In this document: piece after piece, positions 5,912-26,116 of the stretch | Position numbering within the stretch: the first letter of the stretch is position 1 | Layout of the letters: every line of letters begins with the position of its first letter | Assembly: GCA_018901625.1 (NCBI GenBank) | Contig: JAHIEM010000078.1 | Span: 1 to 34,296, forward strand | Source of the DNA: Nanobdellota archaeon | Lineage (GTDB): Archaea; Nanobdellota; Nanobdellia; Pacearchaeales; GW2011-AR1 | Direction: 5' to 3' | Length of the DNA: 34,296 nucleotides | The notes under the pieces: generated by a model | What the model was told of the DNA's origin: nothing | What the model saw: the letters and a program-made list of their open reading frames with translations, nothing else | The model's database searches: none | Made by a program: the position numbers and the translations under genes

Positions 5912-6889
5912 ATGGAAAATAATAAACCGAATATAGACTTAAAAGACAAGAAGATACTAGTTGAATTAGACTGGAATGCCAGAACTTCAAATTCTGAAAT
6001 TGCAAAGAAAATTCAATTATCAAAAAAAGGAGCTGAATATAGAATAAAAAAACTAGAAAAACTAAATATTATTCAAGGATATTATCCAGTTATTAATTTT
6101 GAAAAAATAGGCTATACAATAAACAGAATGATGTTTAAATTGCAGTTAATAGACACTGAAATTAAGGAAAAAATAGAGGAATATTTGAAAAAACAGGAAA
6201 ACATTCACTGGGCAGTCTGGTTTAGAGGAGATGCAGATTTAGGAATAGATGTCTGGACAAAATCAATAAAAGAATTTAAAGAAATTTTAAATCAATTTAG
6301 CATAAAATTCGGAAAATACATAAAGCAAAAAACATTTTCAAGTTCAGTGGGTTTTGACCAGTACCCATATAGTTTTTTATTAAATAAAAAAGATGAAAGA
6401 ATAGCAATAATAACAGAAGAAACAGAAATAGCAAAAATAGATGGATTAGATAAAAAAATTTTAAGACAATTAGTAAAAAACGCAAGAGAATCATCAGCAG
6501 AAATAGCAAGAAAGATAAATTCAAATTACAAGACAGTTTCAAACAGAATCAAGCAATTAGAAAAAAACAAAATTCTCCTCTGCAATCGTGCTTTAATTAA
6601 TGTAGAGCTATTAGGATACAAAATGTATAAATTAAGATTATGTTTTGATAATAATATTCAGCAGGCATATAAACAAGCAAATGAATTTTTTAAATCAAGA
6701 TTAGAAACAGTTTATATTGTTGATTTCTTAGGTGAAGAAGATTATGATGTTGAAGTAATTGTAAAAAATGAAGATGAATTTAATAATTTAATTAAAGATT
6801 TGCAAAACAAACTTGGCAGATTAATCAGGGGATATACCTATTTTTTATTTGAAAAAAACATAAAAGTAAGGTATTTGCCTGACATTTAA
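5912..6889 (+). CDS. Tandem (duplicated) Lrp/AsnC-family transcriptional regulator
   Basis: Two HTH_AsnC-type segments (DLKDKKILVELDWNARTSNSEIAKKIQLSKKGAEYRIKKLEKLNII and DGLDKKILRQLVKNARESSAEIARKINSNYKTVSNRIKQLEKNKIL), each followed by an effector-domain-sized region. Confidence 0.75.
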   Translation: MENNKPNIDLKDKKILVELDWNARTSNSEIAKKIQLSKKGAEYRIKKLEKLNIIQGYYPVINFEKIGYTINRMMFKLQLIDTEIKEKIEEYLKKQENIHWAVWFRGDADLGIDVWTKSIKEFKEILNQFSIKFGKYIKQKTFSSSVGFDQYPYSFLLNKKDERIAIITEETEIAKIDGLDKKILRQLVKNARESSAEIARKINSNYKTVSNRIKQLEKNKILLCNRALINVELLGYKMYKLRLCFDNNIQQAYKQANEFFKSRLETVYIVDFLGEEDYDVEVIVKNEDEFNNLIKDLQNKLGRLIRGYTYFLFEKNIKVRYLPDI

Positions 6890-7017
6890 TATTATTATCC
6901 TCTCTTTACTAGTCAGAATTTATAAACATCCTCCCTCTTATCTGCTATTTTTTATTACTAAATTTTATATTTATTATTCAATTATACTGTAAGCAGCCAG
7001 ATAGCAAAGTTAAATTA

Positions 7018-7674
7018 TTATTTTACTGGAATAAATTTTTCCTGCCTAAGAATTCTGTTTAATTGAGGAGACAAATCTTCAGAACTCTCTCTCCATCCTC
7101 TAATTAAATTTAAGTCCACAACAACATAGCCCTTATGCGGGTTTCTTATTCTGTTTGGAACATAAATTTTATTTAAAAAATTAATAAGCTGGGGAATATC
7201 CTTAAAATTATTTGCATATTTGCTGTCAAATTCAGGAGATACAAGAATCTCCCTGTCAATTACACCATATTTTTTATTAGCATTCTCATCTATTCTCTCT
7301 AACAAACAAACAGCATGATTACTCTCTCCCTGCCCTTGCAGCACAAGCATCATAGGTTTATATCCCAAATCCTGAGCTAAACAACAAGCAAGAGCAGAAT
7401 TATCTTTGCAATCTCCTTTTCCATCATCAACTGTTCTTTTTGCACTTCTAAAAAAATCAGGATATTTTACAGAAGAATCTATGCAATCTTCAAGATAACT
7501 TGAAATCTCTCCCAATGTTCTTGGTTTGCAGTCAGTAATCAGCCTTTCCCACGAAACATTCATCCTCACTCCAACTCTCTGGCTCACTTCAATTGTTCTC
7601 CGGCTATGATAAGAACAACTAGGCGCAGTTAAAGTTAAAACCCCTGCTAAGATAGAAGTTAGCAATTTCCCCAT
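7018..7674 (-). CDS. Transglutaminase-like cysteine peptidase-fold lipoprotein
   Basis: N-terminal signal with Cys (LTLTAPSC). GKGDCKDNSALACCLAQDLGY followed by NHAVCLL and a downstream Asp resembles a Cys-His-Asp transglutaminase core. Confidence 0.5.
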   Translation of the reverse strand: MGKLLTSILAGVLTLTAPSCSYHSRRTIEVSQRVGVRMNVSWERLITDCKPRTLGEISSYLEDCIDSSVKYPDFFRSAKRTVDDGKGDCKDNSALACCLAQDLGYKPMMLVLQGQGESNHAVCLLERIDENANKKYGVIDREILVSPEFDSKYANNFKDIPQLINFLNKIYVPNRIRNPHKGYVVVDLNLIRGWRESSEDLSPQLNRILRQEKFIPVK

Positions 7675-7823
7675 AAATTTAGTTGGAATTGAAGTATAAA
7701 AGAATTATTGTTCTAAAGAGGTATATGCTCTCAAGGATTGCTCACTTTTCTCCCAATCCCCTTGGAGTCAGTATCCACACAAAATGTTATCCCAATAGAA
7801 TAAGTCAAAACTGGTCTCACATT

Positions 7824-7917
7824 TCTCAATCGCATATGCGCCACCCAAAAAGCTTTGCTCTTTCTATCTTGAGTTACAAATTCTAAGAGCAAAGCTTTTT
7901 CCGGGAAGTTGAACCCA
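7824..7917 (-). repeat. Partial copy of tRNA-Gly 3' end (T-arm + acceptor strand + 3' flank) split by a palindromic insert
   Basis: 7824-7846 (ttctcaatcgcatatgcgccaccc) matches 7945-7968 of the real tRNA-Gly 3' end and flank. 7901-7916 (ccgggaagttgaaccc) matches 7967-7981 with a 1-nt insertion. A 54-nt insert separates the two parts. Confidence 0.7.
7847..7900. repeat. Perfect 14-bp inverted repeat with 26-nt loop (54-nt palindromic element; possible bidirectional terminator or MITE-like insert)
   Basis: aaaaagctttgctc (7847-7860) is the exact reverse complement of gagcaaagcttttt (7887-7900). A5/T5 runs at the stem base and CC on both sides. Confidence 0.8.
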
Positions 7918-7958
7918 TGGGTTCAATTCCAGTGCTATTTCAATTCTTCAATAGCATA

Positions 7959-8029
7959 TGCGCCACCCGGGAATTGAACCCGGTTCCCTTCCTTGGCAAG
8001 GAAGAATTCTACCGGTAAACTAGCAGCGC
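7959..8029 (-). tRNA. tRNA-Gly (anticodon GCC)
   Basis: Minus-strand read: GCGCTGC TA GTTT ACCGGTA GAAT T CTTCC TTGCCAA GGAAG GGAA CCGGG TTCAATT CCCGG GTGGCGC A. 71 nt, 7-bp acceptor with two G-U pairs, canonical T-loop, no encoded CCA. Confidence 0.85.
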
Positions 8030-8127
8030 CGAGGAGTTTCGCGAGCGGAATTTATTTGAATACCGGGCGGGACTCCGAGCATGTCTATTAGATATATTAA
8101 AGCATTTTAAAGTTTTGCTATCTGAAA

Positions 8128-8403
8128 TCATTCGTATCTTAGAGCATCAACGGGTCTCAGCCTAGAAGCCCTATAAGCTGGAATTGCTCCAAATATCAAA
8201 CCCACTCCCATAGAAAGCAAAAAGACTTCTATCATCAAAGGGATGCTGACATAAGCATTAGATAAAGAGAATCTCCCAATACCAGACCCACTAGCCAATT
8301 GACCAATAAATGCTGCTCCGAATACTCCTAAGATCAAGCCCATTACCCCCCCAATCAAGCCGATTACCCCCCCAATCAAGCCGATTACCCCCGCATTTAA
8401 CAA
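8128..8403 (-). pseudogene. C-terminal fragment of an FtsX/MacB-type ABC permease
   Basis: Ends with the family-typical C-terminus (FGAIPAYRASRLRPVDALRYE). Only ~90 codons are open and the track start is a TTG. No upstream continuation appears in any frame, and the fragment abuts the tRNA-Val island. Confidence 0.65.
8342..8392. repeat. 21-bp tandem repeat (about 2.4 units) inside the FtsX fragment
   Basis: attacccccccaatcaagccg occurs at 8342-8362 and 8363-8383, with a partial third unit. It encodes the duplicated GVIGLIG peptide. Confidence 0.85.
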
Positions 8404-8644
8404 AAAAGAAACAAAATTACTCTATTTGAAGATTCAAAAATGGAAATATTCTAAGACTAAGGGAAAGAGGAAAATAGCTTCGACTTTGCCATAAATACAT
8501 CCTAAGGTTTTGTCTTTTCTCCTTAGGACTTTTAGTTATGGGAGTATGGTGGATTTTGGTGTTCTAAAAATTGAAAAATCTTAGGATAAGCTTTAAAAGT
8601 GCCAGGTTTATTATTATTTTAAGATTATTAATAATAATCTAAAT

Positions 8645-8715
8645 GGGCTCATAAGCTAGCGGTAAACTGACTCGTTTACACCGAGTATTCCGAGGTTCAA
8701 CTCCTCGTGGGCCCA
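8645..8715 (+). tRNA. tRNA-Val (anticodon TAC)
   Basis: GGGCTCA TA AGCT AGCGGTA AACT G ACTCG TTTACAC CGAGT ATTC CGAGG TTCAACT CCTCG TGGGCCC A. 71 nt; acceptor, anticodon and T stems pair, with one C-A mismatch in the D stem. Confidence 0.8.
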
Positions 8716-8726
8716 TATTTACTAAA

Positions 8727-9299
8727 ATGGAAGAAAAGATATTAAAATTTATTAGAGAAAAATATGAAGAAGGCGATTTTAAGTATCATATTTCTGCTGT
8801 TGTAAAAAATGCTATGTTGTTAGCTAACAAATTAAAAGCTGACAAAGATGTTGTAGAAATGGCTGCTTATTTGCATGATATGGCAAGATCGCTTAATAGA
8901 GATGATGTTAAGGAGTTTGTAAATGAGAATGAACATCATATTGAAGGAGCAAAACAAAGTGAGATTTTTCTTAAAGAATTGGGCTATGATAAGGAGTTCA
9001 TTGAAAAAGTATCCCATTGTGTTCTTACTCATAGGGGTAGGGGTAATATAGAACCAAAAACAGTAGAAGCAAGGATTGTTGCTTGTGCTGACGCAATGGC
9101 TCATTTTGATACATTTTTAGATTTATTCGAAGTTTTTTTAAAAACAACAGACTCTTTTGAAGATGCAGTTATAAGAATAGAGAAAAAAATGCAAAGAAAT
9201 TGGGAGATTAAGTTAACATTGCCAGAAGCAAAAGAAATAGTAAAAGACAAATATGAAGCTATAATGTTATTAATTAAAAGTATGAAAGAATACATTTAA
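8727..9299 (+). CDS. HD-domain phosphohydrolase
   Basis: H...HD signature (AAYLHDMARS), HCVLTHRG and ACADAMAHFD motifs of the HD superfamily. Starts 11 nt after the tRNA-Val. Confidence 0.7.
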   Translation: MEEKILKFIREKYEEGDFKYHISAVVKNAMLLANKLKADKDVVEMAAYLHDMARSLNRDDVKEFVNENEHHIEGAKQSEIFLKELGYDKEFIEKVSHCVLTHRGRGNIEPKTVEARIVACADAMAHFDTFLDLFEVFLKTTDSFEDAVIRIEKKMQRNWEIKLTLPEAKEIVKDKYEAIMLLIKSMKEYI

Positions 9300-9330
9300 A
9301 TCATTAATCAAATTAACATTAATAATAAAT

Positions 9331-9419
9331 TGGGCTCAAAACAACTCGGTTGAACATAATCATCTCAAAAAGTAGTAGCTCGTTACAAAAGTTAACCTTT
9401 AGGAGCTTTTTGTTTACAC
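9331..9419 (+). repeat. tRNA-Val-derived module M2 (5' flank + acceptor-like GGGCTCA ... degenerate core ... hairpin motif ... GTTTACAC core)
   Basis: aataataaatTGGGCTCA mirrors the tRNA-Val 5' flank and acceptor (8631-8651). Internal GCTCGTTACAAAAG is a degenerate anticodon arm. The H-like motif aaaagttaacctttaggagct is at 9387-9407 and the core at 9412-9419. No T-arm follows. Confidence 0.7.
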
Positions 9420-9468
9420 CGAACCTAACAAAGTTCTTCCAAGAAAATTAAAAACATTTTAGAATAAT

Positions 9469-9843
9469 TTATTGGACAAGTTCATAAATTCCTTTTTCTA
9501 AAACATACATATCTAAAGGATTCGGAGCTACACCCCTTAATTGTTCAGCTGCTTCATCTCTTCCAGCAGACTTAAGAGCTTCGATAACATCTGGAGAATA
9601 TGCAAGTCTTGATTCTTTAGGAATGGGAAATGTTGCCCCTGTTTGTTCTTCAATTCTTTCTTTTGTAAAAATTGTTGGAATAACCAAACCCACCAATGAC
9701 TTTCTAACTTCTAAGGGTGTATCTTCGTCCGTGCTAATTTGAGTTACTTTAACTCTTTCCCATTTACCTCTGTAAAAAGTTCCAGGAATTCCATACATAG
9801 CCATCACTTCATCTGACCCATGAATTATTACAGTTCTTGCCAT
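9469..9843 (-). CDS. Hypothetical protein (124 aa)
   Basis: ATG-initiated ORF filling one inter-core interval. No recognisable motif. Confidence 0.5.
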   Translation of the reverse strand: MARTVIIHGSDEVMAMYGIPGTFYRGKWERVKVTQISTDEDTPLEVRKSLVGLVIPTIFTKERIEEQTGATFPIPKESRLAYSPDVIEALKSAGRDEAAEQLRGVAPNPLDMYVLEKGIYELVQ

Positions 9844-9950
9844 TTCAAATCAATAAAATATACCTTTTTAAGCATTTATATGCTAAAATTCAAATTAATT
9901 TCCTTATCATAAAAAGTGTTTAATAAAAAAAGAACAATAATGTTATACTT

Positions 9951-9996
9951 GTTTACACCGAGTATTCCGAGGTTCAACTCCTCGTGGGCCCATATT
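9951..9996 (+). repeat. Orphan tRNA-Val 3' half, type a (perfect 46-nt direct repeat of 8674-8719)
   Basis: gtttacaccgagtattccgaggttcaactcctcgtgggcccatatt is identical at both positions. It covers the tRNA from the last 5'-strand anticodon-stem base (G31) through the discriminator (A73), plus 4 nt of 3' flank. Confidence 0.9.
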
Positions 9997-10003
9997 AAAC
10001 AAT

Positions 10004-10116
10004 TGGGCTCAAAACTCAAGAAAAACAACATATCAAAAAGTGCTCTTTTTATTTGGATGCTTTATGATATATTAGTTTACACCGAGTAGTCCGCAGTTCG
10101 ATCCTGCGTGGGGCCA
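10004..10116 (+). repeat. Module M3 + orphan tRNA-like 3' half, type b
   Basis: TGGGCTCAAAACTC...ACATATCAAAAAG... leads to the core at 10075-10082. Then CGAG TAGTC CGCAG TTCGATC CTGCG TGGGGCC A: a good T-arm and a different acceptor strand. Confidence 0.75.
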
Positions 10117-10165
10117 TGCAAACTAAATCGGATAGTTTTAAATAATAAGGAGCATCATTCATCTT

Positions 10166-10462
10166 ATGGACTCCCTTCCACCCCCTATCTTAATTTCAAT
10201 ACTAGGATTAATAATAATTTTACTTGTAGTCTTCTTTGTGAAAGGCAAAAAGAAAGAAAAAATGAAAAATATAAATTTGGTTCAGTTTATTACAGGAATT
10301 TGTATTGCATTAATTGGGGCAGGAATAATGTTTCATGGAAACATCTTTGGAGAAAGGAACTCAGGTATTGCTACAGTTATTGGAATTATTGGTATAGGAT
10401 TGATAGCTACATCCTATAGACACAGATTACTAAAAAAACAAGTAGTTCGTTATAAAAGTTAA
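10166..10462 (+). CDS. Small integral membrane protein (98 aa)
   Basis: Three hydrophobic segments (ILISILGLIIILLVVFFV, ICIALIGAGIMF, ATVIGIIGIGLIA). Preferred over the overlapping 10108-10419 frame. Its 3' end runs into the repeat module. Confidence 0.55.
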   Translation: MDSLPPPILISILGLIIILLVVFFVKGKKKEKMKNINLVQFITGICIALIGAGIMFHGNIFGERNSGIATVIGIIGIGLIATSYRHRLLKKQVVRYKS

Positions 10463-10509
10463 CCTTTAGGAGCTATTTGTTTACACAAAGTATAACAAAA
10501 AGGATATAC
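10433..10509 (+). repeat. Composite site: degenerate core - hairpin motif H - GTTTACAC core - hairpin motif H
   Basis: TTCGTTATAAAAG, then aaaagttaacctttaggagct (10454-10474), then the core at 10479-10486, then aaagtataacaaaaaggatatac (10487-10509). The left half is near-identical to 9366-9419. Confidence 0.7.
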
Positions 10510-10512
10510 TTT

Positions 10513-10932
10513 CTAAATCTTATTTAGCTCTTCACTTATTTTTTCTTTTATTCTAATTAGTATATCCTCTGCAACTTTAAAATCTTTGTTATAAGGAGCA
10601 TAATTTTTACCCCACCTTTCATCTATAAAAGTGGTGCCAAACAATTCTCTTTTGTCCTTATATCTCGGGATAACATGAGTATGCAAGTGAGGGGTGACAT
10701 TTGCTAGAGTAGCGTAATTATAGAGATCAGGATTAAACAATTTCTTAAAAACTTTCTTCAGTTTTTTACCTATTTTAAAATACTCTTCTTTCTCTTCATC
10801 AGTCATATCAAAGAAGTCTAAAGCATCTTTTCTTTTAGCCCAGATGTAAACCTTTCCTAAATAACATTGGTTTTCATTTAGATAAACTTCCCAGTAATCA
10901 TATTCTTTTATTAACAATTTCTTGTAATCCAT
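10513..10932 (-). CDS. HIT-family nucleotide hydrolase/transferase
   Basis: Histidine triad HLHTHVIPR near the C-terminal third. 139 aa. Starts 1 nt after the stop codon of the NYN gene. Confidence 0.75.
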   Translation of the reverse strand: MDYKKLLIKEYDYWEVYLNENQCYLGKVYIWAKRKDALDFFDMTDEEKEEYFKIGKKLKKVFKKLFNPDLYNYATLANVTPHLHTHVIPRYKDKRELFGTTFIDERWGKNYAPYNKDFKVAEDILIRIKEKISEELNKI

Positions 10933-10933
10933 T

Positions 10934-11590
10934 TTATTTTAGACAATTCTCCATAATAACATTCTTACCTAAAACCATAAATTTAAAGTTTTCTCTTAAC
11001 TCTCTTGAATATCCTTTTGCAAGAGAGACACTAAAAACTTCTTTTTTATTATTTTGAGCAAGTTTCATTGCAGGAGTAAAATCCGCATCTCCTGAAAGAA
11101 CTATTAAAGTATCCGCTTTATTTTTAATAGCATATTCAACTAAATCAACAGCAATCATTATATCAACGCCCTTTTCTTTCTTCTTTACATTTCCAATTGT
11201 ATCTAATATGTTCTGTTCAACAATCGGCTTACAATTTTCACATAACTCCATAGAGTCAATAAGCTCTTGTTTTTCTTTTAATAATTCTTTAGTCGAATGA
11301 ACTTGCAGTTTTCTTGTATGAATCGTAAACTTTGGAATCTTTCTTAAATCATCTATAAACTTGAGATGAGAAAAGTATAATTCTTTTCCATCTTTTAAGG
11401 GGGGCATAGAATTGTAATACCTTGCTTCTTTTAATTCTACATCAAACTGTTTACAAATTAAGTCTACTAGCTTATGGAAGTCTAGATTAGAAGGCTTAAT
11501 CTTCATTTGTTTTAAGTTATGATATAGGTTATTACCATCAATAAAGATAATTGCTTCTTTCGCCATTTTAGAAAATATAAAACCCGGCAT
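10934..11590 (-). CDS. NYN/LabA-like (PIN-fold) domain protein, putative RNase
   Basis: IFIDGNNLYHNL, GVDIMIAVDL and VLSGDADFTPA motifs typical of NYN/DUF88. An alternative start (MAKEA...) lies at 11566. Confidence 0.7.
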   Translation of the reverse strand: MPGFIFSKMAKEAIIFIDGNNLYHNLKQMKIKPSNLDFHKLVDLICKQFDVELKEARYYNSMPPLKDGKELYFSHLKFIDDLRKIPKFTIHTRKLQVHSTKELLKEKQELIDSMELCENCKPIVEQNILDTIGNVKKKEKGVDIMIAVDLVEYAIKNKADTLIVLSGDADFTPAMKLAQNNKKEVFSVSLAKGYSRELRENFKFMVLGKNVIMENCLK

Positions 11591-11665
11591 TGTCCGAAGA
11601 CCATACCGGGGACTTAATAATTAATATAACCACGCAGAGTATTTAAGCTTTGCTTTTTGGCTCCA

Positions 11666-11742
11666 AAGAAAGTATATCCTTTAGGATATAATCGTTTACA
11701 CCGAGAAGATCACCGGTTCGATTCCGGTAGGGACCATATTTT
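11666..11742 (+). repeat. 77-nt perfect direct repeat, copy 1: hairpin H + core + orphan tRNA-like 3' half, type c
   Basis: aagaaagtatatcctttaggatataatcgtttacaccgagaagatcaccggttcgattccggtagggaccatatttt is identical to 15253-15329. It contains T-arm ACCGG TTCGATT CCGGT and acceptor strand AGGGACC A. An acceptor-like GGCTCCA sits upstream at 11659. Confidence 0.9.
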
Positions 11743-11830
11743 TTTTGAGATAGAAAGATTTAAAAGTAACTAATAAATAATATTTTAGAGGCGATGGTAA
11801 AGAATCGCCTTAGAATTCTAAAAAACAAAA

Positions 11831-12439
11831 ATGACAAAACAGGGATTAGATAAATTAACAATAAGTCAACCAATATGGCCTGGAAAAGAACTTCAAGTTC
11901 AACCAGGAGACTTATCAAAGTTTGCTCCTTATGGAAATGGTGTTTATGGTTATCAAAGAAGTTCACTTGAACCAATTAGAGGAGACCCCCCACAAGAGGA
12001 AACAGCAGGATTAATTTATTTTGGAAATAGAGTAAAAAGAGAGGATTTTGATGGATTCTTAAGAATGATGAATGTTAGAGCAGGAAACAAAGATTATGCT
12101 GCTTTTGTTCAAGAATCTGCTAATCCACTTGAAGATAGATATTTTAAACAAATGAGACTAATGTCTAAATTTGGTCTTAGATTCATGTTTGGAGCTATTG
12201 GTAATGGAGAATATGATTCATTTAAAGAACAGGATTTAACATTAGGAGAAGCATTATGGTCTTTTATGGATGCTGAAAAAGAAAGATTTGGAACTTCTTT
12301 TGGAGACCCAAGAATTGAAGGTAAGATGGGTGGGGATGGAGATTATGCTAGAGAAGAACTTAGTTTTGGATTCATGTTAGAAAATGAGTATCATCACATT
12401 TATCGTATTTGGAGCAGAGCTTGGCTAGTCACAAAGTAA
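11831..12439 (+). CDS. Hypothetical protein (202 aa)
   Basis: ATG-initiated ORF occupying one inter-core interval. No recognisable motif. Confidence 0.5.
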   Translation: MTKQGLDKLTISQPIWPGKELQVQPGDLSKFAPYGNGVYGYQRSSLEPIRGDPPQEETAGLIYFGNRVKREDFDGFLRMMNVRAGNKDYAAFVQESANPLEDRYFKQMRLMSKFGLRFMFGAIGNGEYDSFKEQDLTLGEALWSFMDAEKERFGTSFGDPRIEGKMGGDGDYAREELSFGFMLENEYHHIYRIWSRAWLVTK

Positions 12440-12448
12440 AATTTTATA

Positions 12449-12580
12449 TGGCCCAACCACATCAAAATATCAACAAATGGCCCAAAACTCGTGTAACAAA
12501 ACATATCATAAAAAATTCTATCTAAAATAAGAAGTAATTTGAGATATTCGTTTACACAAAGTATATCAAAAAGGATATAC
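12449..12580 (+). repeat. Module M5: decayed 3'-end remnant + acceptor-like GGCCCAAAACTC + core + hairpin H
   Basis: ATGGCCCAAC...AACAAATGGCCCAAAACTCG parallels 9985-10016 (GTGGGCCCA...AACAATTGGGCTCAAAACTC). ACATATCATAAAAA is shared with M2/M3. The core is at 12550-12557, followed by aaagtatatcaaaaaggatatac (12558-12580). Confidence 0.65.
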
Positions 12581-12631
12581 TATCTTAATTCAGCTTTGGA
12601 TATATTTGTTAATTGAAAAATATCTAAAAAA

Positions 12632-13312
12632 CTACTGATAGTGTTTTATCAAACTATCTAGGACAGTATATGCTTTTGTTGAATCTTTCTCATACAAAAC
12701 AAATATAACCTGTTTGTAAGTTGAAGCAATATCTATTATGTTTATTTCCTGCTCAGCAAGTTTTCCAGTAATAAAAGAAAGAAATCCTGGAATATCTTTA
12801 GAGTAAGAAGTTGATTCTCCTGCTTCTCTCAATGAAAGCAGTGTAAGCCCCTCCTTTTTTTCTAGGATACTTTTACCAAGCCCAGAAAATTTCTTCTCAT
12901 TTTTCTTATCAATTACAACGGTAATCTCTCCACTTCCCTGAACAAAGAACATTATGTCTCCCAAGTCCCATCTAATTGTCTTAGAAATCTTATTAATTAG
13001 ATTCATTACATTCTTTGTTCTTTCTAAAGTAAATGAAGAAATTTTATTTTTCATAATCAATTCGCAATCTTTCAAAAGCTCTCCACAGTCATTCTCACTT
13101 TTAGTTACTTTAATCTCATCATAGTATCTCTGGATAGCAATTAAAACCGAAGAAAAGTTAGCCTTCTTATTCTTGTGTTTTATCTTACTTAGAATCTCGC
13201 GAGTAAGAGCAGAATAATTAATCAATCCTTTCTTCAGAACTTCATTTAAGTAAAGATTGGAGCTTATTTCTTCTTTTACTAGTTCAGCAGTTGATTTATT
13301 CCCTACATTCAT
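12632..13312 (-). CDS. Hypothetical protein, possible small-molecule-responsive regulator
   Basis: 226-aa ORF divergent from the ATP-grasp gene across a 59-nt TATA-rich spacer. The N-terminal segment is HTH-like (weak). No firm motif. Confidence 0.4.
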   Translation of the reverse strand: MNVGNKSTAELVKEEISSNLYLNEVLKKGLINYSALTREILSKIKHKNKKANFSSVLIAIQRYYDEIKVTKSENDCGELLKDCELIMKNKISSFTLERTKNVMNLINKISKTIRWDLGDIMFFVQGSGEITVVIDKKNEKKFSGLGKSILEKKEGLTLLSLREAGESTSYSKDIPGFLSFITGKLAEQEINIIDIASTYKQVIFVLYEKDSTKAYTVLDSLIKHYQ

Positions 13313-13371
13313 TTTAGTTATGTATAATATTAGACATAAAGTATAAATATCTATAGTTTAAATACTTTTTC
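13313..13371. promoter_or_regulatory. Divergent promoter region
   Basis: 59-nt spacer containing two TATA-like boxes (agtataaatatc, gtttaaatac) about 20-35 nt from the two opposing ATGs. Confidence 0.4.
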
Positions 13372-14541
13372 ATGAAAAACATAAAACTTGAAAAAGCATT
13401 GAAAGAAACATTTAACAGCGCATATTTTTTCACAAAATATCCCGAACTAAAAAACAACAAAGATACAGGAAACCCTGTATTTCCGTTCGTAGAAAATGGA
13501 TATGACAGTCAGACAATAGTTTCAGAAACAATGCGATTTTTTCCAGTTGCAGCACTAACTGGGGGAAGTTTCTTCATGCCATCTCAAGCACCAATTGAAC
13601 AAGTAGAATCATGGCTAGACTTGGGTCTCCCAATACCTGATGTACAAATATATGACAATGATGATCCGCAGGATTATACCAAAAAAGTAAATGCTCTTGC
13701 TTCTAAATCACTGCATCTTCTACATCCATTCTCCAATTTTTCATCAGAAGTATGTGCAGTAAATCCACAATTGCTCTTAGAACTAAACACGAAAAGCAGT
13801 CTTCCAAACTTAACAGAACACACGCCTAAAAAGAAAAAAGCAACTCTTCAAGAAATGTTAGCAATGCAGCCTCCATTTGTTGTGAAAAAAACAACTGGCT
13901 CATCAGGAGATGGAGTTAAGATAATCAAACGCCCAAGCCAGTTATCTGAGTTAGAATCATTTCTAAATGGATCTGAATTTTTTGTAGAAGATTACATTGA
14001 CTATGTTCATAATCATAGTCTTCAGTTTTTTGTAGACTCTAAGGGGGAAATACACTACATAGGTTATGGAGAACAGAACACAACAGAAGAAGGAGAATAC
14101 CTCGGTCTTGTTTGTATGTTAAATAAAACCCCTGCAAAAGGATTACTAAACGTTGGAGAGAAAACCTGCGCTGAAATTGCTGCAAGAGGGTACAAGGGAT
14201 TTGTAGGGCTAGACATATTAGAAGATGACGAGGGAAAATATCACATAATTGATCCAAACATAAGATGTACTGCTGCAACTCCGGTTTACCTACTTCAAGA
14301 AATACTAGTTCCAATTCTAAGTGCATATATCTATGTGGGGTCTGGCAAAATGCAAGCAGAAAACCCTTCCAAAGTAATTGAAAATATAAAAAATGCAGGG
14401 GGCGTTATGCTCTCAATGTCTCATGGAATTCATGGGCAGTACAAGTTCTTTGGCATGTTTGGTGGATCTGATTGCAAAGAAGCATTGCAAAACTGGCAGA
14501 TATTTCAGCAACAATTAAAAACCGAGAATGAGATAAAATAG
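13372..14541 (+). CDS. ATP-grasp family ligase
   Basis: VVKKTTGSSGDGVKII (phosphate-binding loop region), FVEDYID, and GFVGLDILEDDEGKYHIIDPNIR (Mg/ATP site) fit the ATP-grasp fold. Confidence 0.7.
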   Translation: MKNIKLEKALKETFNSAYFFTKYPELKNNKDTGNPVFPFVENGYDSQTIVSETMRFFPVAALTGGSFFMPSQAPIEQVESWLDLGLPIPDVQIYDNDDPQDYTKKVNALASKSLHLLHPFSNFSSEVCAVNPQLLLELNTKSSLPNLTEHTPKKKKATLQEMLAMQPPFVVKKTTGSSGDGVKIIKRPSQLSELESFLNGSEFFVEDYIDYVHNHSLQFFVDSKGEIHYIGYGEQNTTEEGEYLGLVCMLNKTPAKGLLNVGEKTCAEIAARGYKGFVGLDILEDDEGKYHIIDPNIRCTAATPVYLLQEILVPILSAYIYVGSGKMQAENPSKVIENIKNAGGVMLSMSHGIHGQYKFFGMFGGSDCKEALQNWQIFQQQLKTENEIK

Positions 14542-14542
14542 A

Positions 14543-15271
14543 ATGTGCAGACTATTCGCAATATTATCTAAAGAAAAAACAGATGCTAAGTACTGGTTTT
14601 TTGATGCAGAAATCCCTTTTAAAGATTTTTCAGAGAAAATTATCAATGGTGGTCCGCATAATAGCGGATGGGGTGTTGGCTGGCTTGACAAAAAGTGGAA
14701 GATATTCAAAGAAGGTCAGGAAAGTGTGAATAAATATGATTTCAATAAAATCAGAGAAATAAACTCAAATCTTATACTAATTCATTTAAGGCATGCTTCA
14801 TCAGGAGATAATACCACAAAAAACGCCCACCCTTTCTTATACAAAAATTGGATATTTGAACATAATGGTGGTGTTGACAGAAAAGAACTAATAAATCATT
14901 TAAATACCAATCTAAAAAATCAATTAACTAGCGAGACTGACTCCGAGGTTTTCTTCTTTTTGATAATGCAAATATTAGAAGAAAGAGGAGATATTTTAAC
15001 TGCAATAAAAGAAACTGTTAGAATTATTAAGAAATATCCTTATCGTGCGCTTAATTTTATTTTGTCAGATGGAGAAAGTGTTTATGTCTTTAGAGATATA
15101 AGTCCTAAACATATGGACAAAAAGGAATACTATTGTTTGAATTATATAACAACCGAGGATGAGGTTATAATAAGTTCAGATCCTCTAACACACGATAAAT
15201 GGATCTCAGTAAACTTAAGAGAATTATTAGAAATAAACAAGGATTTGAAAATAAGAAAGTATATCCTTTAG
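14543..15271 (+). CDS. Class II (Ntn) glutamine amidotransferase-like protein
   Basis: Begins MCRLFAI (catalytic Cys2 after Met). HLRHASSG..NAHPF and the FEHNGG motif match YafJ/GATase-2-like proteins. Starts 1 nt after the ATP-grasp stop codon. Its last codons lie in the 77-nt repeat. Confidence 0.7.
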   Translation: MCRLFAILSKEKTDAKYWFFDAEIPFKDFSEKIINGGPHNSGWGVGWLDKKWKIFKEGQESVNKYDFNKIREINSNLILIHLRHASSGDNTTKNAHPFLYKNWIFEHNGGVDRKELINHLNTNLKNQLTSETDSEVFFFLIMQILEERGDILTAIKETVRIIKKYPYRALNFILSDGESVYVFRDISPKHMDKKEYYCLNYITTEDEVIISSDPLTHDKWISVNLRELLEINKDLKIRKYIL

Positions 15272-15329
15272 GATATAATCGTTTACACCGAGAAGATCAC
15301 CGGTTCGATTCCGGTAGGGACCATATTTT
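15253..15329 (+). repeat. 77-nt perfect direct repeat, copy 2 (H + core + tRNA-like 3' half, type c)
   Basis: Identical to 11666-11742. The core is at 15281-15288 and the 3' half ends at A 15323. Confidence 0.9.
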
Positions 15330-15393
15330 ATCAGTTTCATCACTTATTCTCAAGAACAACAATACTTTTAAACCACTCAAAAGTAAGAAAACT

Positions 15394-15642
15394 ATGCCCT
15401 GCTCAAATCCCATCAATCAAAAAGGCACAGATGTTTACGAATCAACAAGAACTCCAGACAATAGAGTCCCAGTAAGAGGCCTAGAAATCAGAACAGATTC
15501 AATTGATGATGGAAATAGTGACGCAGAAGCTGAGAGAACACTCTCGCCCCCCCTTTATTATCTCGCTGCCTTTGTTCATTATCTAACACTCCCATTCAGA
15601 ACAGTTAAAACTTGCCTCAGCAGAAGAAATAAAGAAGACTAA
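15394..15642 (+). CDS. Hypothetical small protein (82 aa)
   Basis: Internal ATG of track ORF 15199-15642. The upstream part of that ORF only reads through the repeat. No motif. Confidence 0.3.
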   Translation: MPCSNPINQKGTDVYESTRTPDNRVPVRGLEIRTDSIDDGNSDAEAERTLSPPLYYLAAFVHYLTLPFRTVKTCLSRRNKED

Positions 15643-15676
15643 TAAAGTTTAAATAGCGTATTTTTCTCACTTTAAG

Positions 15677-17497
15677 ATGGCACAAGAAGAATCTAGAAAA
15701 AAAGACAAGCAAGAAGACAGTCTGCAAAATGAAGTAAAGGATATTTCTATAGACTACCAAGCAAGAAAAGGACTCCCACAGTCAAGCATTTCAGAAGAGC
15801 AGCAGAAAGAAATGGAGAAAACCAGGGAGAAGCTAGAAACATTCAAGAAAACAGTAATTAAAAAATACCCATTCATGCAAGCAATAGGAATTCTCCCGCC
15901 GCAAGTTGCAGAAAAGTTTGAAGAAGAGGAAGAAGTTCCAGAGCAAGACAGGAAAGACAAGCCAATTCACATAATGATGATAATCCCAGAAGAGAATTTT
16001 AAAGAGATTCCCAAGATAAAAGCTGAGGTTGTCAAGATAGTAAAAGACATTAAACCAAAGGCATGGGTCCATATCAAGACACCAGTAGACCTATTCAATT
16101 ACTGCCTGGATTCTAAATATGATATTGCAGAAGCAATTGCAATGTCATTCCCGCTTCATGATACAGGAATATTAGGGGCATTTAGAACAGCTCAAATTCA
16201 CAAGTCATTATGCCTAAGAAAGTTCGAGAGATATGTGGCTAGTTATGTTATTGCAGGCTCACTAGTAAGAGGAACTGCGACTAAAACAAGTGATGTAGAT
16301 GTATACCTAGTCATAGATGACACAGATGTAAAGAGAATGCCGAGACTAGAGCTAAAAGAAAAACTAAGAGGAATAATCTATAGCTACATAGCTGAAGCAG
16401 AAGAACTCGCAGGAGTTAAAAACGTCCTTAATGTCCAGGTTTACTTGCTGACTGATTTCTGGGAGTCTGTTAAAGATGCGCACCCTGTTATTTTCACATT
16501 CATAAGAGACGGAATCCCGCTGTATGACAGAGGAACATTCCTGCCATGGAAATTATTACTAAAAATGGGAAGAATCAAGCCCAGCCCAGAAGCAATTGAC
16601 ATGTTCATGTCAATGGGAGACAAGGTTTCAGAGACAGTAAAAAGAAGGCTTCTAGATATTGTTATAGGGGATATTTTCTGGGGAGTTTCCACACCTAGCC
16701 AGGCACTATTAATGCTATACGGCTTGCCTCCTCCAACTATTCAGGAACTTGTAAAGCAAATGAGGGAGATATTTGTAGAAAAAGAAAAAATGTTAGAGCC
16801 AAGATACGCAGACATTCTAGAAGAAATATGCATAAAATACTATAAAGGATACGAACACCAGAAAATAAAAGAAGTTTCAGGGGCAGAAGTTGACAAGCTT
16901 CTGAAAGATACAGAAGACTATATGAAAAGACTTAAGGAACTAAGAGAGCAGATAGAAAAAAGAAATCAGGAAAAAACAATAGAGCAAATCTACAATGATT
17001 CAATCCAATTGTTGCAGGGAATCTTTGGCAAAAAATCAGAATCAGGCCTAGTAGAAAGCTTTGAAAAACAATTCATAAAAAAAGGCAAGCTCCCAGATAA
17101 TTATCTTCATATACTAAAAGACATTATCAAAGCAAGAGAACAGTTTAAAAAAGGAAAACTAGCAAGGCATGAAGTTGAAGATGCAAGAAAAAATGCTTCT
17201 CAATTAATCAATCACTTAATTGAATACACACAGAGATGCGACCTAGCCACTATTCAAAAATCAAGATTGAGACTAAAAACCAAAGATAAAACCTATGAAT
17301 TAGTGCTTGCAGGCAAAGATGCATTCCTAATTGACCAGGGACAAGTTCAAAAAGTCTCAGAAAAAATAGAAAAGTCATCTCCTGAAGAGCTTACAAACGC
17401 GCTTGCAAAACAAGAAAACAATCTTGAAGTTAAGACATCTGCAAAAGTTCTTGAAATAGTCAGGAAAAAGATAGGCGACTTTGAGATTATTTTATAA
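15677..17497 (+). CDS. Large nucleotidyltransferase-domain protein (606 aa)
   Basis: Pol-beta-type NTase signature GSLVRGTATKTSDVDVYLVIDD in the middle. Lys/Glu-rich N- and C-terminal extensions. TATA-like aagtttaaatag about 25 nt upstream. Confidence 0.6.
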   Translation: MAQEESRKKDKQEDSLQNEVKDISIDYQARKGLPQSSISEEQQKEMEKTREKLETFKKTVIKKYPFMQAIGILPPQVAEKFEEEEEVPEQDRKDKPIHIMMIIPEENFKEIPKIKAEVVKIVKDIKPKAWVHIKTPVDLFNYCLDSKYDIAEAIAMSFPLHDTGILGAFRTAQIHKSLCLRKFERYVASYVIAGSLVRGTATKTSDVDVYLVIDDTDVKRMPRLELKEKLRGIIYSYIAEAEELAGVKNVLNVQVYLLTDFWESVKDAHPVIFTFIRDGIPLYDRGTFLPWKLLLKMGRIKPSPEAIDMFMSMGDKVSETVKRRLLDIVIGDIFWGVSTPSQALLMLYGLPPPTIQELVKQMREIFVEKEKMLEPRYADILEEICIKYYKGYEHQKIKEVSGAEVDKLLKDTEDYMKRLKELREQIEKRNQEKTIEQIYNDSIQLLQGIFGKKSESGLVESFEKQFIKKGKLPDNYLHILKDIIKAREQFKKGKLARHEVEDARKNASQLINHLIEYTQRCDLATIQKSRLRLKTKDKTYELVLAGKDAFLIDQGQVQKVSEKIEKSSPEELTNALAKQENNLEVKTSAKVLEIVRKKIGDFEIIL

Positions 17498-17613
17498 TCT
17501 CAATAGCTGTCAAAAATTCGAATTCAGTGAGAATTTCCGAAGCTTCGAAATCATTCTATAAGCATATTCTTCTATACACAAATGCTTAAAAACACAATAT
17601 ACAAGTTTAATTT

Positions 17614-17886
17614 ATGGTTCAAGACAAAGACAAAAAACTTCTCCAGCTTTATGTACAGATAAGGCAGTCTAGAAGATATAGACCTCAAGAAGGAAATTCT
17701 GAAGAACAAACTCTTCTTGGAGAACTAGAAGAAATGTGCCTGATTCAGAGAAGAAGAGATGGAAGATATGAAACAGAATCTTGCACACCCCAAACAGACA
17801 AGCTAAATCAATTAGCTGATTTAATGCAGCAAGGCGTAAATTTAATTCAGGAAGCGAGAAACCTAGCAGAGGACTACCCTCAATAA
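17614..17886 (+). CDS. Hypothetical small protein (90 aa)
   Basis: ATG ORF. The next ORF's ATG follows 1 nt after its stop codon. Confidence 0.4.
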   Translation: MVQDKDKKLLQLYVQIRQSRRYRPQEGNSEEQTLLGELEEMCLIQRRRDGRYETESCTPQTDKLNQLADLMQQGVNLIQEARNLAEDYPQ

Positions 17887-24411: not shown

Positions 24412-25221
24412 ATGAATCTTAAAAGAGGAATCGGCATAGTTTTAATCTTAATTTCAGGAGCAATAGGCTGGACAAATACAATTACTGGGGGAGTGATAGG
24501 AGTAAGCTCAAGCCCGGGTCTGAATATTCTGACAGTTTTAATCTTCATTGCCGGGATGATTCTAGTTCTGACTGAAAACTTAGAAGGGAGACTGCACTCA
24601 ATGATGACTTCTAAACAAAGAGAGAAATATGGGCAATTGTCAGAAGGCGAAAGAGAAGCATACCAAAAAAGCCTGAGAAGATATCAAGAAAGAAATATGA
24701 AAAGATTTGACAAATCTTACTATTCAAAGAGGGTCAAGGAGCTGCTTTCTCATGAAGGAGATGCTTGGATTGCTCTAGGAGAAGTTCCGGGAGTAGTTAA
24801 AGAATTGAATAAAAGAGGGTATATCGCTGAACACAGAGTAAACGAAGCAACACTCCACCTTTCAACAGGGGTATACAAAAGAAAAGAGGATGATTATGAG
24901 AATGGAAATGCAAATGTTCCTTACAGAAGGATACTTCACATAGAAATATCTGGAAGAGGCAAGAAAAAGGGGATAACAAAACACTTGCTCGTAAGCCGAG
25001 ATCCTTCAGATGAGAGAATAATAAATCAGGCAGGAATTGATGATTCTGGAGAGAGAATAAAAAGAATTCCATCAAAAGTTTATTCAATTGATGAACTAGG
25101 AAGTCCAGTCTATCCCGAGATAGGAATTCCGAAAACAGTTATTCTAGAAAAAGAATATGAAGAAGGAAGAAAGTCAGCTGCAAAGAAAAGATCTCGGAGA
25201 CAATACGCCAATCAAGTCTAG
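24412..25221 (+). CDS. Membrane-anchored hypothetical protein (269 aa)
   Basis: Two N-terminal TM segments, then a charged soluble region with a K/R-rich tail. Its 3' end overlaps the convergent rtcB-like gene by 48 nt. Confidence 0.5.
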   Translation: MNLKRGIGIVLILISGAIGWTNTITGGVIGVSSSPGLNILTVLIFIAGMILVLTENLEGRLHSMMTSKQREKYGQLSEGEREAYQKSLRRYQERNMKRFDKSYYSKRVKELLSHEGDAWIALGEVPGVVKELNKRGYIAEHRVNEATLHLSTGVYKRKEDDYENGNANVPYRRILHIEISGRGKKKGITKHLLVSRDPSDERIINQAGIDDSGERIKRIPSKVYSIDELGSPVYPEIGIPKTVILEKEYEEGRKSAAKKRSRRQYANQV

Positions 25222-26115: not shown

Positions 26116-26116
26116 T

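Follow-up and report, generated by a model that had tools for sequence, protein, structure and literature searches.

By what route do genes come to stand in a row behind one tRNA gene, separated by copies of its anticodon loop? The question is raised by contig JAHIEM010000078.1 of a Nanobdellota archaeon (assembly GCA_018901625.1), of which we analyzed a stretch of 34,296 nucleotides (nt), referred to here as the window. In it, an intact tRNA-Val(UAC) gene, called by both ARAGORN and Rfam, is followed by an array of short repeats of its own anticodon loop with small groups of genes between them. An earlier note on this DNA had described the array and likened it to an integron-style cassette platform of an undescribed kind. 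We find that the array is real, and that it most probably (at a probability of roughly 0.75) arose by site-specific accretion of seven small nonautonomous integrative elements, with a recombinase acting in trans. The locus is a real and widespread hotspot of gene capture, not a new kind of integron; on our best reading it is integron-like in its outcome and follows classical tRNA-targeting integrases in the logic of its sites.

The repeated unit is the core GTTTACAC, a G followed by the 7-nt anticodon loop TTTACAC. A motif scan found it eight times in the window, always on the plus strand (Table 1), with core-to-core intervals of 738, 539, 124, 404, 1215, 856, and 2731 nt, whereas 0.41 copies are expected by chance and none of 100 shuffles reached eight. 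Even the bare 7-mer TTTACAC is confined to these eight sites on either strand of the whole window. Six cores continue with CGA and two with AAAG. The number, strand, and spacing of the cores, their absence elsewhere in the window, and their two kinds of continuation are thus as the earlier note had described them. Given that (G)TTTACAC, the anticodon loop, is the sole block common to all eight junctions, the proposal that the repeats are crossover cores located in this loop also stands. Behind five of the cores (those starting at 8674, 9951, 10075, 11694, and 15281) we found tRNA 3' halves. The one referred to as H1 is identical at 8674 and 9951; H2, at 10075, is 72% identical to H1; and H3 occurs at 11694 and 15281, both times inside a perfect 77-nt direct repeat. 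A further direct repeat of tRNA parts spans 50 nt with 98% identity (8670-8719 versus 9947-9996), and one of its copies lies inside the live gene. Duplications of tRNA 3' halves such as these (50 nt at 98%, 77 nt at 100%) are the classical footprint of integration and support a site-specific process. A second tRNA-Val reported by ARAGORN at 9916-9992 was rejected as a pseudo-hit, a true 3' half behind AT-rich filler without an Rfam call, and a scan of the array with Rfam gave no family besides tRNA. The array is AT rich (GC content 0.29 to 0.34), as had been remarked, but the lowest value in the window lies elsewhere, at 6001-7000 (0.25).

To place the array in its ancestral context, we used the 606-amino-acid (aa) gene with a nucleotidyltransferase (NTase) domain downstream of it as a synteny probe. 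This gene matched 80 loci (L018 to L097) in metagenome-assembled genomes (MAGs) of Pacearchaeota, Woesearchaeota, and Nanoarchaeota, at 55 to 74% identity. In most of them a single tRNA-Val(UAC) gene lies 100 to 900 nt upstream of the NTase gene, so that the empty site predicted earlier, with tRNA-Val directly upstream of the NTase gene, is present in most relatives. A tRNA-Gly(GCC) gene often stands beside it, with a gap of only ∼35 to 55 nt between the two tRNA genes in L044, L067, L068, L072, and L083. The ancestral order in these 80 genomes is therefore tRNA-Gly, one tRNA-Val, and NTase gene. Because it holds a single tRNA-Val, whatever the window contains beyond one tRNA between tRNA-Gly and the NTase gene is extra, and 6.6 kb of it is, to judge from synteny, inserted DNA. 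The terminal H3, at 15289, is found ∼350 nt upstream from the NTase gene, a position that matches that of the tRNA in relatives, and among the 3' halves it most resembles those of L018, L083, and L075, the closest relatives; it is therefore best taken as the displaced native half. The intact tRNA-Val carries a type-1 5' half, GGGCTCATAAGCTAGCGGTAAACTGACTC, a type native to other lineages (L082 and L097), and between it and tRNA-Gly there is foreign DNA with the fragment of an FtsX gene, which together indicate that the 5' side of the locus was remodeled as well. The fragment had been noted before as a truncated FtsX gene ahead of the array, and it is real but weak, covering profile positions 51-118 of 120 at 22.5 bits, which is below the Pfam cutoff. 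Three to four tandem 21-nt repeats (CCSATTACCCCCCCAATCAAG) lie within it, at 8318-8400.

After removal of three nested insertions from the array, its units resolve into two designs. Class I units (S1, S3, S4, and probably S6) consist of a tRNA 3' half, zero or one gene, and a conserved arm, while class II units (S5, S7, and probably S2) carry end sequences of their own, d and c, beside the flanking cores. The cargo in the order S1 to S7 is an HD-domain gene, a 124-aa orphan, nothing, a 98-aa membrane protein, HIT and NYN genes, a 202-aa orphan, and a cluster of ACT, ATP-grasp, and class-II GATase genes. Pfam agrees here with the gene content given in the earlier note for each interval, the regulator being the ACT-domain protein and the amidotransferase the class-II GATase. 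The units hold zero to three genes on both strands and none encodes a recombinase, which bears out their description as cassette sized and free of an integrase. Both attachment (att) sites are kept, in that intact cores and conserved arms bound every unit. The HD gene of S1 starts with an ATG 12 nt past the end of the tRNA. In S4, the 3' half H2 belongs to a different tRNA-Val type. S2 has a marginal terminal inverted repeat in the window (score 22) and an eroded left end; its end types, e and b, also occur in L135, L150, L124, and L111, and the pair is clear in other contigs. The 202-aa orphan of S6 is 82% identical to an open reading frame (ORF) of L085 (11810-12427) just downstream of the NTase gene, while the NTase proteins of the window and L085 are 59% identical, which suggests a recent transfer of the orphan gene outside a GTTTACAC-bounded cassette.

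Table 1. Coordinates of the tRNA-Val array, its units, and other features of the window
Feature	Position	Strand	Basis or content
Cores (G + anticodon loop TTTACAC), first four	8674-8681, 9412-9419, 9951-9958, 10075-10082	+	Motif scan
Cores, remaining four	10479-10486, 11694-11701, 12550-12557, 15281-15288	+	Motif scan
Live tRNA-Val(UAC), type 1 (T-loop TTCAACT)	8645-8715	+	ARAGORN; Rfam 55.5 bits
S1, class I	8682-9411	+	H1 8682-8715, HD-domain gene 8727-9299, arm A ∼9330-9411
S2, class II-like (e/b ends)	9420-9950	+	124-aa orphan gene 9469-9843 (-); inserted in an A-core-H1 junction
S3, empty class I unit	9959-10074	+	H1 and degenerate 5'-half arm; core spacing 124 nt
S4, class I	10083-10478	+	H2 10083-10116, 98-aa membrane protein 10166-10462, arm A 10434-10478
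S5, class II (d/c ends)	10487-11693	+	Arm d 10487-10514, arm c 11666-11693
S5 cargo	10513-10932, 10934-11590	-	HIT, NYN; Pfam
S6, probably class I, variant arm	11702-12549	+	H3 11702-11736 (identical to terminal copy), arm b3 ∼12477-12549
S6 cargo	11831-12439		202-aa orphan; ORF
S7, class II (d/c ends)	12558-15280	+	Arm d 12558-12586, arm c 15253-15280
S7 cargo	12632-13312 (-), 13372-14541, 14543-15271		ACT-domain protein, ATP-grasp, class-II GATase; Pfam
77-nt perfect direct repeat (arm c + core + H3 + ATATTTT)	11666-11742 = 15253-15329	+	Repeat search
Displaced native tRNA-Val 3' half H3 (CGAGAAGATCACCGGTTCGATTCCGGTAGGGACCA)	15289-15323	+	Marks far end of insert
606-aa NTase-domain gene, conserved host flank and synteny anchor	15677-17497	+	Pfam; 80 related loci
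tRNA-Gly(GCC), ancestral neighbor of tRNA-Val	7959-8029	-	ARAGORN; Rfam 53.1 bits
Truncated FtsX C-terminal fragment, foreign DNA between tRNA-Gly and tRNA-Val	8128-8403	-	Pfam 22.5 bits
IS605-type TnpB (OrfB_IS605 + Cas12f1-like TNB + HTH_OrfB)	22981-24135	-	Pfam; no TnpA detected

The arm of class I units is made up of a degenerate tRNA-Val 5' half, whose sequence (GGGCTAAAAGCTCAGTAAACAAGTAGCTCGTTAC) is best seen in metagenome copies, and an inner module of 25 nt (AAAAGGTTACCTTTAGGATACATTA; AAAAGTTAACCTTTAGGAGCTWTTT in the window). In S1, arm A (∼9330-9411) reads GGGCTCAAAAC...TAGCTCGTTAC followed by AAAAGTTAACCTTTAGGAGCTTTTT. In end-to-end alignments the left arm scored z = 4.4 to 6.2 against the type-1 tRNA-Val 5' half, a score reached by at most 1 of 2,000 shuffles, and far lower against other tRNA-Val types; in a stricter local alignment with the tRNA 5' half it was not significant. 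With moderate confidence, we take the outer part of the arm to be a pseudo-tRNA-Val 5' half. The stretch CCTTTAGGA(TA) is common to the inner module of arm A and to arm c, at an equal distance from the core. In class II units, arm d (AAAGTATAWCAAAAAGGATATACT) follows the left core and arm c (AAGAAAGTATATCCTTTAGGATATAATC) precedes the right one. They form terminal inverted repeats of 24 nt in S5 (score 36) and 29 nt in S7 (score 42), against a background in shuffles of 13.5 ± 3.4 with a maximum of 26. Each of the two arms forms a hairpin, and the c-core-d junction of the predicted circle folds as a palindrome centered on the core (z = -7.0 for S5 and -7.9 for S7), while nothing unusual is predicted for the folding of the class I site (z = -1.0). 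The c-core-d layout is, in its predicted form, that of a simple tyrosine-recombinase site. The arms that the earlier note called conserved hairpins are conserved, but hairpins and palindromes are found at the d/c ends only. We also considered whether arm A might be a tRNA 3' half in inverted form, which would turn all units into inverted-repeat elements; this was discarded, as the terminal inverted-repeat scores of S1, S3, S4, and S6 are at background. About 12 to 20 nt upstream of the cores, the left arms contain AAAAG-N-AACCTTTWW (9388-9405 and 10455-10472 in the window), which resembles a AAAnCTTTTTAA box located ∼25 to 35 nt upstream of tRNA genes in related loci. The latter is possibly a BRE/TATA promoter (BRE, B recognition element). 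If the box in the arm is functional, transcription would start approximately at the core and run into the 3' half and the next cassette.

Our reading is carried by the repeats, by the insertion as measured against the ancestral gene order, by arms that are conserved and widespread, and by the linkage of integrase and core in relatives described below. In the mechanism that we propose, conservative site-specific recombination would use the 7-nt anticodon loop TTTACAC of tRNA-Val(UAC) as crossover (overlap) region, and the core site of a circular unit would recombine either with the core of tRNA-Val or with an existing pseudo-tRNA junction in the array. For class I units, the attachment site of the circle would be a complete pseudo-tRNA-Val, in which the degenerate type-1 5' half is followed by the 25-nt inner module with its relation to arm c, then by the core and the true 3' half of a tRNA. 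Upon integration, the unit's own 3' half would land behind the 5' half of the host, leaving the tRNA whole, the previous 3' half would be pushed downstream, and the first cargo gene would come to lie 12 nt past the tRNA. Class II units, with their imperfect inverted-repeat ends d and c flanking the core, would restore no tRNA and would use the safe pseudo-tRNA junctions that class I units leave behind. Every insertion would regenerate at least one core, so that the locus would keep accepting units. The conserved module on the left side of the core (YTTTAKGATAYAWTN) is a likely binding element, as is, for class II, the inverted partner of this module on the right side. The predicted circle junctions read ...AGGATATAATC-GTTTACAC-AAAGTATA... 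for S7 and S5 and ...GGAGCTTTTT-GTTTACAC-CGAGTATTCC... for S1, and the predicted junction of an excised donor, with arm a joined to H3, ...GGAGCTATTT-GTTTACAC-CGAGAAGATC... The enzyme acting in trans would most likely be a divergent tyrosine recombinase specific to Nanoarchaeota/Pacearchaeota and supplied by larger elements with the same core, and the cassettes would be nonautonomous derivatives, comparable to bacterial cis-mobilizable elements (CIMEs).

A candidate for this enzyme is encoded at the same site in relatives. In L060, an ORF of 426 aa (P0001) lies 70 nt behind the tRNA-Val 5' half and core; in Pfam, it matches Phage_int_SAM_1 at 23.5 bits and Phage_integrase weakly. It has 463 homologues at an E value of ≤1e-5, several of which are named tyrosine-type recombinase, from Nanoarchaeota/Pacearchaeota MAGs. 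With an AlphaFold model for the family (pLDDT 83.3) as query, the best 38 PDB matches in Foldseek are tyrosine recombinases or inactive relatives (SroF), the leading ones being XerA, IntI4, lambda Int, Cre, XerH, and Tn1549 Int, with E values down to 2.4e-6. Taken together with Pfam, this model gives the family a two-domain fold with a C-terminal catalytic domain. Alignments A1 and A2 show the invariant residues K216/R217/R219/R222, K301xxR304, H327, and Y337; the family keeps the tyrosine (Y337), the second arginine (in KxxR), His-III, and a K/R-rich beta-hairpin, but has an asparagine for the first catalytic arginine. On the strength of the model, the L060/P0081 family is one of divergent tyrosine recombinases. 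After the catalytic tyrosine, its members have a C-terminal helix of ∼70 residues.

We examined the genomic contexts of L060 and seven further members of the family. In seven of the eight contexts (L060, L161, L162, L164, L166, L170, and L171) the integrase gene lies at most ∼70 nt from a tRNA-Val core. It stands directly behind the tRNA-Val 5' half and GTTTACAC in L161, L162/163, and L164/165, and, in the opposite arrangement, directly beside the core and tRNA-Val 3' half in L166-168, L170 (protein P0081), and L171, where the core has the variant form TTTTACAC. Two sequences near the core also link this family to the cassettes: the 36-nt spacer between gene and core in L170 is arm c, 34 of 36 positions being identical to 11666-11701 of the window, and the left end of L164 contains TCCTAAAGGTT, an inverted copy of the motif of arm A whose distance from the core is unchanged. 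In L078, an integrase gene is found ∼6 kb beyond an array. The integrase-bearing elements exceed 11 kb, encode prim-pol/D5 or MCM-type replication genes, methylases, and restriction genes, and share only the core and CGAG with the tRNA at the junction seen. With a tyrosine-recombinase family located at the same tRNA-Val core in relatives, the puzzle of an array without a recombinase dissolves. On this reading, the family would move the cassettes of the window and the genome of the window would encode a member of it; the array may still be active, and the cleavage points are presumed to lie at the core. A motif screen for tyrosine recombinases in the fetched loci returned only XerA-like proteins (L062 and L125), an integrase in L057, and the L060/L078 family. 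The L057 gene (within nt 1-1194 of that locus) encodes a more canonical integrase (Phage_integrase 27.9 bits, HxxR) and lies directly downstream of tRNA-Asp(GTC), which indicates that Pacearchaeota also host ordinary tRNA-linked integrases of other specificities. In L169, the most divergent member (49%), no tRNA adjoins the gene and a palindromic site (CACCTTTTTGGTCAAC ... GTGAACCAAAAGGTTCA, within 9700-10000) lies upstream; the contig also carries genes for ParB, DUF87 ATPase, and sigma-70-like proteins, and may represent an element that has not integrated, still has an intact attP, and uses another target. Which tRNA half the integrase-proximal end of the large elements adjoins, 5' or 3', differs between genomes, and across L018 to L097 the tRNA-Val gene stands by the NTase gene in either orientation (∼14 plus, ∼40 minus). 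Inversions around the anticodon-loop core may be frequent.

The same system is found well beyond the window. Among the 80 genome loci, about a dozen (L078, L042, L027, L030, L075, L036, L079, L080, L037, L093, and L095) have extra tRNA-Val 3' halves and cores downstream of tRNA-Val, and the first eight of these represent smaller arrays of this kind in other species. Some 70 other contigs share the arm-core junction or contain duplicates of the tRNA-Val 3' half. Conservation of the arm extends to species in which the flanking protein has only ∼60% identity. In metagenomes, the pattern TAGYTCGTTAnAAAA-N15-26-GTTTACAC occurs in 63 contigs, against ∼1 expected by our own estimate. In these contigs the arm is near-invariant and arm d recurs almost unchanged, with up to five cores per contig, while the 3' halves behind the arm are highly diverse, pointing to different hosts or units. 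Empty units with a core spacing of 114, 124, or 134 nt are common in the metagenome loci. We counted the junctions by what stands on the two sides of the core, with T5 for a genuine tRNA-Val 5' half, H for a tRNA 3' half, and A, c, and d for the arms: A-core-H occurred 53 times, T5-core-H 17, A-core-d 10, c-core-H 7, and T5-core-d 0 times. In the junctions sampled, which were selected by arm A, units that do not restore a tRNA are therefore seen in pseudo-tRNA junctions and not in the live gene. The cargo of relatives, called partly with Pfam and partly by eye from the sequences, comprises HicAB-, RelE-, and MazF-like proteins, NTase/HEPN pairs, AbiE-like proteins, NYN proteins, AAA ATPases, ATP-grasp clusters, and methyltransferases. 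The same d/c ends enclose one cargo in the window and others in L113, L152, and L153. L151 shares the type-1 tRNA of the window (97% over 107 nt, with a compensatory change at base pair 3:70), but its first cassette encodes a methyltransferase where that of the window has the HD gene, and in both the first ATG comes 12 nt past the tRNA end. These two comparisons indicate that cassette content is exchangeable. The tRNA-Val genes of L079 (5670-6770) and L052 (7690-7790, minus strand) contain a canonical intron of ∼65 nt after the anticodon. L079 also has a one-gene cassette bounded by a repeat of core, intron, and 3' half; since the repeat includes the intron, the element integrated into an intron-containing tRNA gene. 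Five scans of IMG/VR viral contigs with arm/core patterns yielded no virus or plasmid copy of the site; the 11 matches of the first scan were all unrelated chance matches, and the other four gave none.

Several observations weigh against accretion by such an enzyme. No ORF of ≥90 aa in the 34-kb window matches Phage_integrase or a resolvase in Pfam, so the earlier statement that no recombinase is recognizable holds for integrases, although it missed the IS605-type TnpB gene. In the integrase family itself, an invariant G-E-N aligns with G-L-R of XerA, which puts an asparagine in place of Arg-I, KxxR replaces HxxR, and some of the fold neighbors are inactive repressors. The far end (attR or attL) of the integrase-bearing elements was not found within 10 to 11 kb, and none was seen with both ends. 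At the locus, the type-1 5' half of the live tRNA is mismatched with the native H3, to which its acceptor strand would not pair, and a search allowing up to 8 mismatches did not find the native 5' half in the window; at least one extra event, a replacement or deletion on the 5' side, is not explained by simple accretion. Inverted repeats are significant in S5 and S7 only. The arrangement is the same in each of the four assemblies of this population, and no excision or circular-junction variant was seen. Finally, the metagenome set was chosen by the arm A pattern, which biases both the consensus and the junction census.

Some of these points favor the view that the array is a fossil, inserted by the same mechanism and now consisting of immobile relics kept as ordinary accessory genes. 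The lack of an integrase in the window, the identical arrangement in four assemblies, and the degenerate ends, such as the eroded left end of S2 and the limited identity of H2 to H1, would all fit. Against it, all eight cores are intact and the 77-nt repeat is perfect, which argues against great age; the two copies of the 50-nt repeat are near-identical, and the arms are near-identical across distant genomes, suggesting recent spread or selection on the sites. We therefore consider a fossil unlikely, though worth keeping in mind.

The integron-like platform of the earlier note fares worse. Spelled out, a recombinase would act on folded single-stranded hairpins (analogues of attC) to shuffle promoterless cassettes, and the tRNA would serve as attI-like site and promoter. 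An array of cassettes with zero to three genes, often with toxin-antitoxin or defense-type cargo in relatives, invites the comparison, and so do the empty units of 114 to 134 nt, the position of the first cassette gene 12 nt after the tRNA in two genomes, the hairpins in arms d and c, and the strongly palindromic c-core-d junction. Yet no integrase adjoins the platform in the window or lies inside the arrays of the nine genome loci with ORFs listed, and the window has no resident integrase, attI, or cassette promoter (Pc); the integrase is carried on mobile elements instead. The core GTTTACAC has a T at position 4 and does not fit GTTRRRY, the cassettes are in both orientations and often multigene, and only the d/c ends fold, the class I site being unremarkable in this respect. 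This makes an integron platform distinctly improbable.

Less probable again is transposition, either by MITE-like elements (miniature inverted-repeat transposable elements) with an 8-bp target duplication made by a DDE transposase, or by hairpin elements of IS200/IS605 (palindrome-associated transposable elements, PATEs) at TTAC. The inverted repeats of S5 and S7 are indeed flanked by an 8-bp direct repeat, TTAC is contained in the core, the window encodes TnpB, and the integrase-proximal end joins either tRNA half in different elements. However, the supposed duplication always has the same sequence and reaches 45 to 77 nt where a tRNA half is involved, the 3 to 4 nt beside the core are variable, unlike transposon tips, and the ORFs examined in the arrays and next to them included neither a DDE nor a Y1 (HUH) transposase. 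In seven of eight contexts, by contrast, the core has a tyrosine recombinase linked to it. IS200/IS605 elements insert 3' of a target of 4 to 5 nt without duplicating it and have subterminal hairpins, not inverted repeats such as those of S5 and S7, and there is no TTTACAC near TnpB. A link through the TnpB gene of the window was accordingly rejected, as it shares no motif with the array and the window has no Y1_Tnp match. The weakest alternative, an assembly artifact by collapse or chimera of several tRNA-Val loci, which the earlier note had raised against itself, could appeal to the short-read assemblies that break at the repeats (Logan and NCBI contigs, ending at 8696, 15300, and 8991), but it is excluded for practical purposes by the independent 24-kb ENA contig k141_406623, which crosses the complete array and has 0 mismatches to 6995-17680, by unique cassette sequences that connect the repeats in a single order, and by analogous arrays in dozens of unrelated contigs.

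Accretion of small integrative elements also fits best among known systems. For archaeal elements, anticodon-loop integration, tandem integration, and loss of the integrase are established (PMC8371274). Like the elements with tRNA-targeting tyrosine integrases described in that review and for Islander, those of the window have their crossover in a 7-nt anticodon loop flanked by a palindromic stem, duplicate the 3' part of the tRNA, with an element-borne copy restoring the gene, and have an unoccupied counterpart in relatives, here in most of the 80 loci. They differ in that units of 0.1 to 2.7 kb without an integrase are stacked seven to one gene, the integrase being found beside the att site only in relatives (the seven contexts listed above), and in that class I units have a whole pseudo-tRNA as their attachment site. 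Only 8 to 12 nt are common to the tRNA and to class II units or the relatives with an integrase, and the tRNA is not restored at the junction seen, and the integrase family is without the first catalytic arginine. In bacteria, CIMEs are elements that have kept attL and attR but lost their recombination genes; they accrete at att sites and are mobilized by the integrase of another element (PMC5704250). The units of the window resemble CIMEs of the ICESt1 type in keeping att sites, lacking recombination genes, and accumulating in tandem at a tRNA/att site. CIMEs, however, are bacterial and derive by decay from integrative and conjugative or integrative and mobilizable elements, whereas the present units are far smaller, form a conserved family over many archaeal genomes, include the palindromic d/c site design, and would be mobilized in trans. 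The ssrA genomic islands of Dehalococcoides are described at the tmRNA gene and not in an anticodon loop.

Integrons, bacterial or from archaeal MAGs, resemble the locus in that small cassettes, of which some are empty or have a single gene, stand in order at one fixed site, and in that the recombinase belongs to the tyrosine family. The window differs from them in having no resident intI-attI-Pc module and no attC (an imperfect palindrome, R''/L''/L'/R', that ends in GTTRRRY and crosses over at G/TT), in using a tRNA gene as docking site, and in holding cassettes of up to three genes in both orientations. Xer-dependent modules, such as integrative mobile elements exploiting Xer (IMEX) and the pdif modules of Acinetobacter plasmids, carry one to three genes, often toxin-antitoxin pairs, between short recombinase sites, have no recombinase of their own, and occur stacked. 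They use the host XerC/D at dif-like sites, while the present core belongs to the anticodon loop of a tRNA and has a dedicated integrase family of mobile elements linked to it. For split or disrupted tRNA genes of archaea, a recombinase-carrying mobile element has been proposed to part the 5' and 3' pieces of the tRNA and scatter the fragments (PMC3293823). Separated tRNA halves, in the phylum of a split-tRNA organism, connect the window with the split tRNAs of Nanoarchaeum and with the model for tRNA-Thr of Caldiarchaeum; the window differs in keeping an intact tRNA-Val. In split genes of the Nanoarchaeum type, the halves are transcribed separately, have a complementary leader and trailer, and are joined at a bulge-helix-bulge (BHB) motif.

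In the literature searched we found no description of tRNA-Val cassette arrays in DPANN archaea or Pacearchaeota, which is not proof of novelty. What appears to be undescribed is a stack of seven miniature units in a single anticodon loop, units that bring a pseudo-tRNA as their own docking site, a palindromic d/c design built around that core as well, its spread through Pacearchaeota, and an Asn-variant integrase family dedicated to tRNA-Val. The claim of an undescribed cassette platform thus survives for the scale of the array, the size of the units, the pseudo-tRNA site, and the integrase family, but not for the principle, which is known (PMC8371274, PMC5704250).

We tentatively extend these results to a lineage-wide system of integron-like gene capture in Pacearchaeota, an extension that, taken as a whole, is doubtful. 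Here, the Asn-variant recombinase on plasmid- or virus-like elements would shuttle miniature cassettes with toxin-antitoxin, defense, and metabolic cargo at the anticodon loop of tRNA-Val. Each class I unit would bring a fresh pseudo-tRNA docking site and so allow unlimited growth of the array, and the tRNA promoter would express the first cassette as a tRNA-mRNA cotranscript. DPANN archaea have tiny genomes, and to our knowledge almost no mobile elements have been described from them. Even without the extension, this locus and the ∼70 other contigs show a common, structured route by which accessory genes (toxin-antitoxin, NYN/HEPN/nucleotidyltransferase, AbiE-like, and ATP-grasp genes) are acquired. 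It combines one tRNA gene as reusable docking site with a supply of mini-elements that lack an integrase and, most likely, with an integrase family that is both specific and unusual. As a bolder corollary of the extension, insertion of an integrase-bearing or d/c element into a live tRNA gene would leave two halves with complementary flanking inverted repeats. If true, this is the arrangement needed for trans-spliced split tRNA genes of the Nanoarchaeum type, a candidate route to them, and the splitting of archaeal tRNA genes by mobile elements becomes testable in the phylum of split tRNAs (compare PMC3293823). As a rule for annotation, tRNA-Val 3' halves and TAGYTCGTTAnAAAA...GTTTACAC mark cassette boundaries, and the compact pair of recombinase and site is a candidate tool.

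Elsewhere in the window, the archaeal thermosome, L10e, and L35Ae are encoded. The ENA contig ends inside the TnpB gene, where 115 of its 124 differing columns (mismatches and gaps) are concentrated, which suggests several diverged TnpB copies in the genome. The region of RtcB, the tRNA-splicing ligase, at 25174-27765 on the minus strand looks fragmented: a 323-aa ORF matches only the C-terminal part of RtcB, and its neighbors are two ORFs of 161 and 388 aa, the latter with NUMOD3, a DNA-binding motif of homing endonucleases. Insertion of an intein or homing endonuclease could explain this, as could a frameshift in the gene.

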